Shown here: piece by piece, positions 50,308-56,591 of the stretch
Layout: each line of letters opens with the position of its first letter
Position numbering within the stretch: the first letter of the stretch is position 1
Assembly: GCA_965248355.1 (NCBI GenBank)
Contig: OZ252098.1
Span: forward strand, 3,968,001 to 4,032,000
DNA from: Candidatus Latescibacterota bacterium
GTDB taxonomy: Bacteria; Latescibacterota; UBA2968; UBA8231
Direction: 5' to 3'
DNA: 64,000 nucleotides
Notes under the pieces: model-generated
What the model was told of the DNA's origin: nothing
Database searches by the model: none
Seen by the model: the letters and a program-made list of their open reading frames with translations, nothing else
Position numbers and translations under genes: made by a program

Positions 50308-51425
50308 GTCGCGACGCAACCCCGCCGCAGGCCTACGTCGCCTTCGAGGACGTCTGCAAGAGCTACGACGGCCGCAGCCTGGTGGTGAGCCACGTCGACC
50401 TGCGGGTCGAGAAAGGCGAGTTCCTCACCCTCCTCGGGCCCTCCGGGTCGGGCAAGACCACCTGCCTGATGATGCTCGCCGGCTTCGAGACCCCCACCTC
50501 GGGCACGATCCGCATCGACGGCCGCCCGGTGCACGCCCTGCCGCCCCGAAAGCGCGGCATCGGCATGGTCTTTCAGAACTACGCCCTCTTCCCGCACATG
50601 ACGGTGGGCCGCAACCTCGCCTTCCCCCTCGAGGTGCGCGGGCTCGATCAGGAGGAATGCCGGGAGCGGGTCGAGCGGGCCCTGCAGCTGGTCCGCCTCG
50701 AAGGCCTGCAGGACCGCCGGCCCGCCCAGCTCTCCGGCGGCCAGCAGCAGCGCGTGGCCATCGCCCGGGCCCTGATCTTCGATCCCGCCCTCGTGCTGAT
50801 GGACGAGCCCCTCGGCGCCCTCGACCGGCGCCTGCGCGAGGAGATGCAGTACGAGATCCGGCGCATCCACCAGAGCCTCGGCGTCACCGTGGTCTACGTC
50901 ACCCACGACCAGCAGGAGGCCATGGTCATGTCCGACCGCATCGCCGTCCTGCGCGCCGGGCGGATCGAGCAGATCGCCGGGCCCGAGGCCCTCTACGAGG
51001 AGCCGGAGCGCTTCTTCGTGGCCCGCTTCATCGGCGAGAACAACCGCCTCCACGGCCGGGTGGCGGAGGTCAGCGGCGACATCTGCGCCGTGGAGAGCGG
51101 CGGCGAGGTCATCCGGGCCCTGCGCGTGGCCCCCTGCGGCCCCGGCGACGCCACCACCCTCTCCATCCGCCCGGAGCGCGTCGCCGTCTCGCCCGAGCCC
51201 GGCCTCTACACCAACGACGACGTGGGAGGCTACATCGCCTACAGCCCCGCGCGCCGCTCGGCCATGGCCCTGATCTCGACCCACGCCGAGAAGGCCGTGG
51301 AGATGATTCCCCACATGCCCACCAGCGAGCAGAATGCAAAGCGCGCCCTGCACAACAACTGGGAGTGGTGGAGCGACCACGGCGACGAGATGAACGAGCG
51401 CTTCAGCACCTGGCTGGCGCGGTAG
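50304..51425 (+). pseudogene. potA: PotA-like ABC ATPase truncated and fused in frame to the PotD C-terminus
   Basis: [28 protein letters not shown]; after GLYTN the sequence switches to DVGGYIAYSP...NERFSTWLAR of a substrate-binding protein. Confidence 0.8.
51219..51425 (+). repeat. potD 3'-end repeat, copy 1 (207 bp)
   Basis: 14 mismatches versus copy 2 by hand count (about 93% identical); ends at the stop codon. Confidence 0.95.
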
Positions 51426-51487
51426 AAGGACACCGGGGCCTTCGAAGGGACCCTGGAGGCGTCGAACCGGGAAGGGACAATGATCCA

Positions 51488-51524
51488 TTGACGCGGCGGC
51501 CAAACGTAGTCTATATTGGACTAC
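51488..51524 (+). promoter_or_regulatory. Toxin-antitoxin promoter with operator palindrome
   Basis: TTGACG-N18-TATATT; inverted repeat GTAGTC-N7-GACTAC (51506-51524) straddles the -10 box. Confidence 0.65.
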
Positions 51525-51547
51525 AATGACAACCAGATAGCGGAGCT

Positions 51548-51832
51548 ATGACCGCCCGACACTCAGAATCCCACCGCGTTTGGACCGTCGCCGAGGCCAA
51601 GGCGCGTTTGTCCGAAGTCCTGCGTCGCGCCGAAGAGGAAGGGCCTCAACATATCGGCAGGCGAAAATCCTTCGTTGTAGTCCCCGCCCACGTATGGGCC
51701 GAGAAAGAGTCGCAGCGCCAACCCATGGGCCAGTGGTTGGTAGCCAACATGCCCCGTGGCGCGAACCTCGAGATCACCAGAAATAGAGAATCCCGGCGGG
51801 AAATCCCATTCGCGTCTGAAGACACAGGGTGA
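51548..51832 (+). CDS. Phd/YefM-family antitoxin
   Basis: WTVAEAKARLSEVLRRAEEEGPQ.I; GTGA overlap with the PIN gene. Confidence 0.88.
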   Translation: MTARHSESHRVWTVAEAKARLSEVLRRAEEEGPQHIGRRKSFVVVPAHVWAEKESQRQPMGQWLVANMPRGANLEITRNRESRREIPFASEDTG

Positions 51833-52248
51833 GCGGGTTTCTTCTGGACACCAATGTGGTCTCGGAGTTGACAAAAGACGCGCCAAATCCGCGGGTTCTC
51901 GCATTCCTGACCGAACAAGACGACTTGTGGTTATCCGCGATAGTGTTGCATGAGCTGGAGTTCGGCTTGCAACTGCTGCCGCCGGGACAACGTCGCGACG
52001 GGTTGCGGTCGGTGCTGTCAGAGTTCATTTCGGCGTATGAGGACCGCATCCTGCCCTTGGAGAGGACGGGGGCGGAGCGGGCTGCCCAATTCCGGGCGCA
52101 GGCGCATCGCTCCGGTCGCGTGCTGGACTTGGGGGATGCGCTGATCGCCGGGACAGCCAAAGGTCATGGCCTCTCTGTTGCGACGCGGAACGTCGGGGAC
52201 TTCGCGGATCTGGCCGTCGGCGTCACCAACCCATGGGAGACGCCTTGA
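51829..52248 (+). CDS. vapC: VapC PIN-domain toxin
   Basis: FLLDTNVVSEL, ELEFG, DALIAGTA, ATRNVGDF. Confidence 0.92.
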   Translation: MSGFLLDTNVVSELTKDAPNPRVLAFLTEQDDLWLSAIVLHELEFGLQLLPPGQRRDGLRSVLSEFISAYEDRILPLERTGAERAAQFRAQAHRSGRVLDLGDALIAGTAKGHGLSVATRNVGDFADLAVGVTNPWETP

Positions 52249-52346
52249 CTACCCTACACGGGGGGCCTCGCCATCGTCGCCGGCACGCCCAGGCTCGAGG
52301 CGGCGCGCAGGTTCGTCCACTTCGCCTCCACGGCCCGGCCATCGCC

Positions 52347-54610: not shown

Positions 54611-54623
54611 GCCCCATGGAATC

Positions 54624-54676
54624 TTGACAAAGAAACGCTCCTTTCCTAAGCATCGGCCTTAGGAAAGGAGCGTTTC
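54624..54676 (+). promoter_or_regulatory. TTGACA followed by a perfect 19-bp inverted repeat covering the fic RBS
   Basis: GAAACGCTCCTTTCCTAAG-N7-CTTAGGAAAGGAGCGTTTC (54632-54676); ATG at 54683. Confidence 0.7.
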
Positions 54677-54682
54677 CCAGTC

Positions 54683-55837
54683 ATGGCTCGCCAAACCGGT
54701 CAATACCGCAGTACCCGCACCTTGGGGGAGGAGGTTCGGGCCTTCGTTCCACACCCCCTGCCCCCGACCAATCCTGCCCTGGTGATGGATGAGCCCACGG
54801 CGGAGCTCCACGCCGCCGCGCGGACAGCCCTTGCGCGTCTGGCAGTGGCGGGCACGATGGTGCCCAGCACCGAGTGGTTCATCTACGGCTTCGTTCGCAA
54901 GGAGGCGGTCGTCACCTCGCAGATCGAAGGGACGCAGGCCACGCTCCGGGATGTTGTCACCTTCGAGGCCACGGAACAAAGCGAGCGTCCCGACGATGTC
55001 CGGGAGATCTGCAACTATGTGGATGCCCTCGCACACGCCCGGAGACAGATCGCGGCCCCCGGGGGTCTGCCGCTGAGTATCCGCCTCTTGTGCGATTCGC
55101 ACCGCATCCTGATGCGGGGTGTTCGCGGTGAGGGCAAGCGGCCCGGTGAGGTCCGCCGATCGCAGAACTGGATTGGCGGCAGCAGGCCCGGCAACGCCCG
55201 CTTTGTCCCACCGCCGCCCGAGGCCGTCCCCGGCGCCCTCGCGGCGCTGGAGCGGTGGTTGCATGACGATGGCCGTCTGCCGCCCCTGGTTCGGATTGGT
55301 CTCGCCCATGTGCAGTTCGAGACGATCCATCCGTTCCTCGATGGCAACGGCCGCATCGGCCGGCTCCTGATCGCGCTGCTCGTCGAGCATTGGGATCTGC
55401 TGGAGCAGCCCCTGCTCTACATCAGCCTGGCCTTCAAGCGTGAGCAGCAGGAGTACTACGCCCGGCTGTCGGAGGTTCGCAGCGACGGGGATTGGGAGGG
55501 CTGGATCGGGTTCTTCCTCGCCTGCGTGCGCGAGGCTGCCGAGGACGGAGTTCGTGTTGCGCAGGCGCTCCATGCTCTCGTAGGGCGCGATCGCAGCCGC
55601 ATCTTCGACTCCGACCGGTCGACCGTAGCCGCCATCCAGTTGCTCGAGCTTCTGCCCTGCAATCCGGTCGTCACGGTTCCCGGGGCGTCGACACTGCTCG
55701 GCCTGACGGCCCCTCCGACACGCAAGGCGATTGGGCTGCTGGAAGAGCTTGGCGTGCTTCGTGAGATCACCGGCAGGCGGCGCGGTCGCGCCTACGCCTA
55801 TGACGAGTACGTTCAAATCCTGACGGGCGACGAGTAG
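54683..55837 (+). CDS. Fic family protein (Fic_N, Fic, C-terminal HTH)
   Basis: EAVVTSQIEG inhibitory-type motif; HPFLDGNGRIGR catalytic motif. Confidence 0.93.
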   Translation: MARQTGQYRSTRTLGEEVRAFVPHPLPPTNPALVMDEPTAELHAAARTALARLAVAGTMVPSTEWFIYGFVRKEAVVTSQIEGTQATLRDVVTFEATEQSERPDDVREICNYVDALAHARRQIAAPGGLPLSIRLLCDSHRILMRGVRGEGKRPGEVRRSQNWIGGSRPGNARFVPPPPEAVPGALAALERWLHDDGRLPPLVRIGLAHVQFETIHPFLDGNGRIGRLLIALLVEHWDLLEQPLLYISLAFKREQQEYYARLSEVRSDGDWEGWIGFFLACVREAAEDGVRVAQALHALVGRDRSRIFDSDRSTVAAIQLLELLPCNPVVTVPGASTLLGLTAPPTRKAIGLLEELGVLREITGRRRGRAYAYDEYVQILTGDE

Positions 55838-55884
55838 GGATCCCATCCATAGGCTCTTCCACACGGGCAGGCGTACGATTATGA

Positions 55885-56169
55885 ATGGACTACCTGGCGG
55901 TAAAGGACCTCAAGAAAACCAGGGAACTCTGGGAAAGGCTTGCCAGTGAGCGAGAGCTGGTCATCACCCGGGACGGCAAGCCCTCGGCCTTGATGATCAG
56001 CATCTCACCGGAGACCGTGGAAGAGTCGTTGCGCGAGATTCGTCGGGCGCTGTTCTCAGCCGCCGTGAGCCGTGTGCGGAGGCGGGCCGAGAAGGAAGGG
56101 ATGCCGGACGACGCCGCGATTGCAGCGGAGATCGATCAGAGCAGGAAGGACCGCGGCCTGTCGTCTTGA
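55885..56169 (+). CDS. Phd-like antitoxin
   Basis: ELVITRDGKPSALM; 4-nt overlap with the PIN gene. Confidence 0.75.
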   Translation: MDYLAVKDLKKTRELWERLASERELVITRDGKPSALMISISPETVEESLREIRRALFSAAVSRVRRRAEKEGMPDDAAIAAEIDQSRKDRGLSS

Positions 56170-56591
56170 GAGTGGTCGTGGACACCAACGTCCTGGTATC
56201 GGGGCTGATCAACCCTCACGGCTACCCCGGGCGGATTGTCGATTTGCTGCGTGTGGATGTGTTGCAGGTGGTAGTGGATGACCGCATTCTGGCCGGGTAC
56301 CACGATGTCCTGGCTCGCGATGCTTTCCGTCGGTACTTCTCGAAGCCGGACCGGGAAGGCATACTGGACTACCTCGAAAACAACGCGCTGCACATTGCCC
56401 CCCGCCTGGTCCTGCCCCCCTTGCCGGATCCCGGTGACACGCCGTTCCTGGAGGTGGCTCTGTCCGAGGAGGTGCCCCTGGTGACAGGGAATGCGAGCCA
56501 CTTCCCTGCGGAAAGGCGGAAAAACTGCGAGGTGCTCAGTCCAAGGGAGTTTCTCCACACGCACCTTCCCGCCGAGTCAGAGGGGGAATGA
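56166..56591 (+). CDS. PIN_3-type putative toxin
   Basis: RVVVDTNVLVSGL, DPGDTPFLEVA, LVTGN..HFP. Confidence 0.85.
   Translation: MRVVVDTNVLVSGLINPHGYPGRIVDLLRVDVLQVVVDDRILAGYHDVLARDAFRRYFSKPDREGILDYLENNALHIAPRLVLPPLPDPGDTPFLEVALSEEVPLVTGNASHFPAERRKNCEVLSPREFLHTHLPAESEGE

Follow-up and report, generated by a model that had tools for sequence, protein, structure and literature searches.

Copies of a potD-type gene end beside toxin and defence cassettes in a Latescibacterota genome are probably scars of general recombination at a broken transporter operon

Why does a bacterial genome carry three copies of the end of one transporter gene, each of them followed by a different toxin or defence module? 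The question is raised by a 64,000-nucleotide stretch of DNA from a Candidatus Latescibacterota bacterium (NCBI GenBank assembly GCA_965248355.1, contig OZ252098.1, positions 3,968,001 to 4,032,000), which is here called the window. The original prediction, made by a model from the sequence alone, had read this locus as an integrase-free cassette array, in which cassettes sitting behind potD in different relatives were stacked with the tail of the gene as a homology anchor. Our analysis indicates that the three copies are probably scars of general recombination events that added toxin and defence cassettes at the potD-potB spacer, and that the operon broke later. The anchor is a gene for an ATP-binding cassette (ABC) substrate-binding protein of the SBP_bac_8 family, whose match to PotD is only weak (intact relative L049:8057-9178), and it is therefore called potD-type. 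As predicted, the 207-bp cores of the copies start at 51219, 52347 and 54404 and every copy terminates at the stop codon; tails 1 and 2 share 193 of 207 positions, tails 1 and 3 share 187 and tails 2 and 3 share 193 (93, 90 and 93%). The full extents, measured against intact potD genes of relatives, differ at the 5' side, again as predicted (208, 298 and 222 bp; Table 1). Chance origin of these repeats is far out of range (E-values of about 1e-80), and no further copy of the tail is found elsewhere in the 5.5-Mb genome, which is a single contig without N. The longest identical stretches between the tails are 60, 53 and 35 nt; identity over 35-60 nt is enough for a rare RecA crossover. Cargo open reading frames (ORFs) begin 70-125 nt past the stop codon of the preceding tail, and the junctions of the array show little or no microhomology.

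A point overlooked by the original prediction is that the transporter operon is dead in this genome. Its order in relatives is potA-potD-potB-potC, and no intact potD exists in the 5.5 Mb. Similarity to the relatives' potA ends at 51217, where the reading frame continues into tail 1. The comparison shows that deletions removed the end of potA together with the body of potD, and also the middle of potB-potC, and that the cassettes stayed; they may have been spared through toxin-antitoxin addiction. Since tail 1 is the surviving end of the deleted potD, displacement can account for tails 2 and 3 at most, so that the predicted stack of three tails is given up for the first and may hold for the other two. 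Beside the operon a third loss, a 1.24-kb deletion, lies at 57651, and a methyltransferase gene split across several frames (window 57353-58592) is further decay next to it.

Relatives display the stacking directly. Our survey covered 61 loci, with L031-L039, L041 and L047 left out as likely duplicates; 30 of the 61 have potB downstream of a full potD, 29 have no potB downstream within the stretch, and two lack a full potD. The potD-potB spacer carries cargo (more than 150 bp) in 20 of the 30 loci and is empty in 10, none of the empty ones being from the same genus. Because this cargo is so varied (it includes RelE/HigA-type, ParE, RelB-YafQ, HicB, PIN, AAA, PD-(D/E)XK nuclease, PLD nuclease and Schlafen), the spacer is best described as a variable slot. 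Orphan tails of 23-191 nt lie behind an intact potD in four of the 20 cargo-bearing loci and in none of the 29 loci that have no potB downstream within the stretch. Genome G002 has tails of 45 and 23 nt, the latter in front of the same Fic promoter that stands behind tail 3 in the window; G007 has one of 45 nt with the same junction as G002; G011 has one of 191 nt that continues for 16 nt after the stop codon, around a Gp49-HTH pair; and L045, from another phylum (Acidobacteriota), has a pair of 34-nt tails that share a 6-nt leader. What follows the common 45-nt junction is different in G002 and G007. In G002 it is the promoter and start of an AAA cassette, which is found directly behind intact potD in G006 and G004, and G007 has there the beginning of an aspartyl-protease gene that in L039 comes first after intact potD. 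The small ORF-IrrE unit of the window stands directly behind intact potD in G002. Each of these three cassettes is attached to an intact potD in one strain and orphaned elsewhere. The comparison of potD-potB intervals that had been proposed as a check thus supports stacking, through both orphan tails and relocated cassettes. Of the predicted stacking of cassettes from behind potD in relatives, the recombinase-free stacking is upheld by these loci, but no tail could be tied to a particular relative. The order small ORF-IrrE, then tail-Fic-Phd, is common to the window and G002 despite a 7% difference in the adjacent aconitase gene, suggesting that turnover is slow. The start of potB is also duplicated in some loci (L054, L139 and L045).

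The same scar is found in other parts of this genome. With gene calls made by our own script, 3235 genes were searched for near-exact 30-nt copies outside full paralogues. Orphan copies of a gene's last 30 nt occur nine times downstream and never upstream (9 v 0: p = 0.004), those of its first 30 nt occur nine times upstream and twice downstream, and interior 30-mers at 240-390 nt give 0-1 orphan copies. A looser scan of 3750 genes finds 16 orphan tails downstream and 0 upstream; three of these 16 are local (<100 bp), one is a mis-called ORF and one is the potD locus, and at the 11 other sites the tails measure 26-168 nt. At least nine unrelated genes of the genome carry the scar. The cargo at the other sites consists of metabolic genes, insertion sequence (IS) remnants, a YoeB gene and a type ISP restriction fragment. 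With both flanks duplicated and the cargo so varied, the scar is two-sided and its cargo is not toxin-specific; the genome-wide search for duplicated tails beside toxin genes therefore confirms that tails are copied elsewhere, but neither that toxin genes are favoured nor that only gene ends are copied. When four other sites were compared with relatives, one was cleanly empty there, two had layered histories that fit stacking, and one was common to the relatives and so uninformative. The type ISP restriction-modification (RM) fragment (L072, G000:C1:5432961-5438043) lies between 27-39-bp gene-end copies; in all four same-genus relatives the insert is absent and just one copy of the gene end is present. 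At L069 (G000:C1:4286650-4291375), a 50-55-bp CBS tail and a 60-bp dehydrogenase tail, which are convergent, meet before a RidA gene, and an additional 16-nt dehydrogenase tail lies behind RidA; the unit is missing there in three relatives, and two carry other cassettes behind the dehydrogenase. Within the window itself, a DUF1015 gene (36310-37665, minus strand) has an 83/83-bp copy of its end 1131 bp downstream (35179-37665), between two paralogous secreted-protein genes, and this site appears empty in G001 and G009.

These observations are best read as the result of general recombination that inserted DNA repeatedly and duplicated long target stretches of variable length, with decay afterwards. 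We propose that strains would hold different cassettes right behind potD, and that donor DNA consisting of the 3' part of potD and a cassette would recombine with the resident potD at one end. Its other end would be joined without long homology, either through an end-joined circle and one RecA crossover or through homology-facilitated illegitimate recombination. Such an event would leave potD intact with the new cassette first, and would push a variable length of the old gene end and the older cassette behind it; existing tails could then act as further crossover points that swap the downstream content. A parsimonious history of the window would begin with Fic-Phd-PIN behind potD. Small ORF-IrrE would then have entered upstream of Fic-Phd-PIN, giving tail 3, and Phd-VapC upstream of the IrrE unit, giving tail 2; the potA-potD deletion, which left tail 1, would have come last. 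RecA (two genes), ComEC, DprA, Ku and LigD are present in the genome with open frames, a gene content that would allow DNA uptake, end-joining to circles and single-crossover integration. The two RecA genes are located at G000:C1:2698441 and 4149169, and the LigD and Ku genes are adjacent (L151).

Several points weigh against this reading. The operon is missing three pieces of 1.2-2 kb, so that deletion could have left tails 1 and 2 as remnants; Phd-VapC stands directly before intact potD in G007, G002 and G004, which fits tail 2 as the remnant of a whole gene; and full tandem potD paralogues are common in two other families. Sixteen of the 20 cargo-bearing spacers have no tail copy, and tail-duplicating insertion is therefore not the usual way in. 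Since gene starts are duplicated too, both genome-wide and at potB, the predicted role of the gene tail as a special homology anchor has to be abandoned. In the genome-wide scan, which depends on self-scripted gene calls, three of the nine start-copy matches are chance-like or an IS copy, and six look real on inspection. That repair and competence genes are present is no evidence that they acted at the potD locus, nor does the scarcity of microhomology at the junctions tell insertion routes apart. The phylogeny of tails and intact alleles (43 rows of 204 nt; the 191-nt orphan of G011 and shorter orphans left out) places the three window tails unresolved among genus-level alleles, so that no donor can be named and no tail is linked to a particular relative. 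Of the ten changes found only in the window tails, seven are non-synonymous, and a frameshift is present in tail 2, so that part of the 6-9% divergence may be decay rather than donor distance; this test is a weak one, because the intact G006 and G004 alleles likewise have five of six private changes non-synonymous. Donors from other species would thus find no support in either the tree or the substitutions. One observation on these alleles counts in favour of the reading. A patch of 60 codons, 306-126 nt before the stop, holds 22 of the 44 codons that differ between the potD genes of G006 and G004 (L050, L051), and this divergent 180-nt patch suggests allele exchange (p of about 0.005-0.01, uncorrected, with one of five pairs clear).

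Some of the same points are what one would expect if the whole of potD had been duplicated in tandem, alone or with Phd-VapC, if cassettes had entered or been swapped between the copies, and if deletions had left the 3' ends. Two or three full tandem potD paralogues are often present in family f2 and genus g20, the operon has suffered several large deletions, Phd-VapC precedes intact potD in the three same-genus genomes mentioned above, and the three tails have lineage-type residues in common and fail to group with different relatives. However, one full potD is present in each of the four same-genus loci and in the same-family loci examined, the tail 3-Fic unit is an orphan behind intact potD in G002, the orphan ends in the genome lie only on the insert side, and short tails whose sites are empty in relatives are not remnants of whole paralogues. 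We consider duplication an unlikely origin of the array.

Site-specific accretion is less likely still. Elements that target the 3' end of a gene and bring a replacement end are known, such as e14 at icd and the cis-mobilizable elements (CIMEs) at fda, and such elements at potD could have accumulated in tandem and lost their integrases. The copies do stop at the stop codon, and junctions do recur, as in the 45-nt junction common to G002 and G007 and the two 34-nt tails of L045 with their 6-nt leader. Yet the 5' boundaries of the duplicated ends vary by event (23, 34, 45, 191, 219 and 295 nt before the stop), which argues against an att core; the constant 5' boundary of a fixed crossover core is not seen, and later trimming may have contributed to this. 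Pfam searches revealed no integrase among 50 window proteins and none among 77 of the 119 cargo ORFs of the 20 spacers, in which one IS5-type transposase was found (L052), and the at least nine unrelated scarred genes would need as many lost integrases. No integrase with a short att core that would explain the junctions was found among these proteins.

The absence of an integrase, transposase, attC site or tRNA nearby had also been predicted, and our searches agree. The nearest transposase (11642-12826) is 38 kb from the array, and the recombinases of the genome, three tyrosine recombinases and one resolvase-family match, are all more than 1.7 Mb away. The only tRNA call in the window, a tRNA-Gly by ARAGORN at 60545-60626, falls within a type III restriction gene and was rejected as probably false. 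The attC motif has the form RYYYAAC ... GTTRRRY, and a simple pattern with a 40-130 nt spacer, used without a covariance model, matches 0 sites on either strand of 51201-56700. No IntI scores above the cut-off in the genome (TIGR02249, best 66 bits versus a cut-off of 265). The array is therefore like those of integrons in having co-oriented, toxin-antitoxin-rich units in a row, and unlike them in having no IntI, no attC-like sites and no fixed crossover point. The predicted integron-like excision or amplification of units was not seen either in the short assembled contigs compared, and the order common with G002 speaks for slow turnover. We also entertained the idea that gene-end copies could be reusable, self-seeding exchange sites, at which circle-borne units ('HTH gene + 45-nt potD tail') would cross genera and phyla and stack newest-first, as a recombinase-free counterpart of the integron. 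This idea arises because the junction common to G002 and G007 has a different follow-on in each and the L045 junction is repeated twice, and we regard it as doubtful. A separate, defence-island-like block of the window (4216-20868) contains two Schlafen/HATPase genes, AAA_21 ATPases, an Eco57I-type methylase, an ADP-ribosylglycohydrolase and a DDE transposase.

A last alternative is that the assembler joined alleles from different strains by way of the repeat. We compared the window with assembled contigs of runs X1 and X4, from one sample that is possibly the source, and of runs X5 and X8, from two other studies. Contigs with 0 differences cover 52499-53497, 53471-54423 and 55336-56726 in X1, and 52506-53497, 53471-54423 and 55433-56726 in X4, and these connect tail 2 with the small ORF, IrrE with tail 3, and Fic with potB. 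The passage from IrrE to tail 3 is bridged in all four runs, including those of the two other studies, and the join of potB to potC by a contig of X5. The junctions at 51217, tail 1-Phd, VapC-tail 2 and tail 3-Fic are spanned by none of the 32 contig pieces listed out of 7326, and for these four we therefore rely on the genome assembly itself; short assembled contigs break at repeats. In the compared runs, the depth of the Phd-VapC module is 2-6 times that of its flanks, indicating that other genomes in those samples carry it. Six RNA runs contain just 0.06-0.10 of the sequence words, and no conclusion on habitat or expression is based on them. No in-register tail-to-tail joint is found among the 15 joints listed out of 164, and a joint 51261->54532 was rejected as evidence of excision, being out of register with unknown intervening sequence. 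Given a genome in one contig without N, repeats just 90-93% alike, the exact contigs across three cassette joins, the runs of two other studies across IrrE-tail 3 and the same cassette order in G002, an assembly artefact is very unlikely, and there is no sign of the concatenation of strain alleles that the original prediction had considered.

The cargo itself agrees with the predicted modules (Phd-VapC, small ORF with an IrrE-like gene, and Fic with Phd-PIN), except that the IrrE match is weak and a motif scan of the 445-aa protein finds no HExxH. All of it is co-oriented, and its GC content is lower than that of the pot genes (0.61-0.66 versus 0.72), barely so for Fic (0.66). The window copy of Phd-VapC is 96% identical to that of G070, from another genus, versus 83% to that of G007, from its own genus, and it was therefore gained or replaced sideways. 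The module also occurs, 90-96% identical, in genera g14 and g21 beside different neighbour genes (L084-L091, L109), where it retains the same 3' flank, and G073 has two copies within 2.6 kb. The 137-aa protein has 438 homologues, none with a name; sequence searches of Pfam, PADLOC, NCBIfam, PHROGs and PDB gave no match, and its Atlas clusters are unnamed only. Its structural model has a predicted local distance difference test (pLDDT) score of 76. The best Foldseek E-value is 0.17, to RelE, and the best Z-score is 4.8, to YxiD (root-mean-square deviation 3.1, 81 aligned residues), with CdiA, MafB2, MqsR and BrnT at 3.1-4.7, so that the predicted fold weakly resembles those of small RNase toxins. 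As its gene and the IrrE-like gene are paired in 14 of 14 loci checked, the two form a candidate for an undescribed toxin-antitoxin or defence pair.

Table 1. Features of the broken transporter operon and its cassettes, in window positions.
Feature	Positions	Strand	Remarks
potA 5' part, polyamine-type ABC ATPase	50304..51217	+	ABC_tran match; cut off, fused in frame to tail 1
potD-type tail 1	51218..51425 (208 bp)	+	leftover 3' end of deleted substrate-binding-protein gene
Phd-VapC module	51457..52255	+	promoter-like site 51488-51517 (promoter scan), Phd 51548-51832, VapC 51829-52248; Pfam, NCBIfam
potD-type tail 2	52256..52553 (298 bp)	+	one base missing near 52335
Unnamed 137-aa gene	52639..53052	+	always beside IrrE-like gene
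445-aa IrrE/M78-like gene	53027..54364	+	PF06114 (Peptidase_M78), E 2e-4, weak
potD-type tail 3	54389..54610 (222 bp)	+	precedes Fic promoter
SoFic-type Fic protein with HPFLDGNGRIGR motif	54683..55837	+	PADLOC SoFic, E 2e-109
Second Phd-like antitoxin and PIN toxin (PIN_3)	55885..56591	+	antitoxin 55885-56169, toxin 56166-56591; Pfam, NCBIfam
potB 5' part :: potC 3' part	56588..57345	+	joined at about 56990; about 1.27 kb lost

Insertions that leave such traces have been described before. According to Furuta, Abe and Kobayashi (2010, PMC2853133), RM genes have been inserted with long target duplication, leaving variable direct repeats, no mobile-element genes and an empty site in relatives; the repeats can overlap the 3' end of a gene, and the species are mostly competent ones. 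The potD locus is similar in having selfish or defence genes between repeats of 208-298 bp (the class has variable ones of >30 bp), inserts of 0.8 and 1.8 kb (<20 kb in the class), no mobile-element gene, and relatives with an empty single-copy site (10 of 30 spacers, and 4 of 4 at the type ISP site). It differs in its cargo of toxin-antitoxin genes, Fic and an unnamed pair, in having several units at one site and in its dead operon; with no R and M genes in the cargo, it works like this class without being a strict member. Variable gene-end fragments also accumulate behind a gene in the C-terminal displacement arrays of rhs and mafB (Jackson et al. 2009, PMC2935791) and in the type VI secretion system (T6SS) immunity arrays of Vibrio cholerae (Kirchberger et al. 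2017, PMC5361080). The arrays resemble ours in the variable length of the fragments, the newest unit standing first, the lack of an integrase, slow turnover, units attached in one strain and orphaned in another, and the proposed routes, a circle with a single crossover or homology-facilitated illegitimate recombination. In rhs, contact-dependent inhibition (CDI) and MafB arrays the orphaned units encode alternative C-terminal tips of the anchor protein. At the potD locus, each copy instead runs to the stop codon and the cargo has its own promoter, with no fusion to the anchor and no reactivation of a silent reservoir, and the anchor is a transporter gene. A further study, in Escherichia coli (PMC3240628), found that when linear donor DNA was trimmed, ligated and integrated through a single crossover, 56 of 60 clones carried a duplicated gene end of 109-950 bp; the rate in this plasmid assay was about 4e-9 per recipient. 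These products share with our locus the duplicated gene end around foreign DNA; unlike it, they come from a laboratory plasmid assay and form no array. A literature search on integrase-free toxin-antitoxin stacking at gene ends, including those of transporter genes, found nothing on point, subscription papers being mostly outside its reach.

In summary, this single locus records a genome history of a kind already described, and is not a new machine. It illustrates how genes for toxin-antitoxin systems and defence can accumulate within housekeeping operons, in bacteria with very few site-specific recombinases. Gene ends copied downstream and gene starts copied upstream provide a countable signature by which this route of gene gain can be measured across genomes. 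The locus would be of greater importance if circles, or exchange within a population, were shown.

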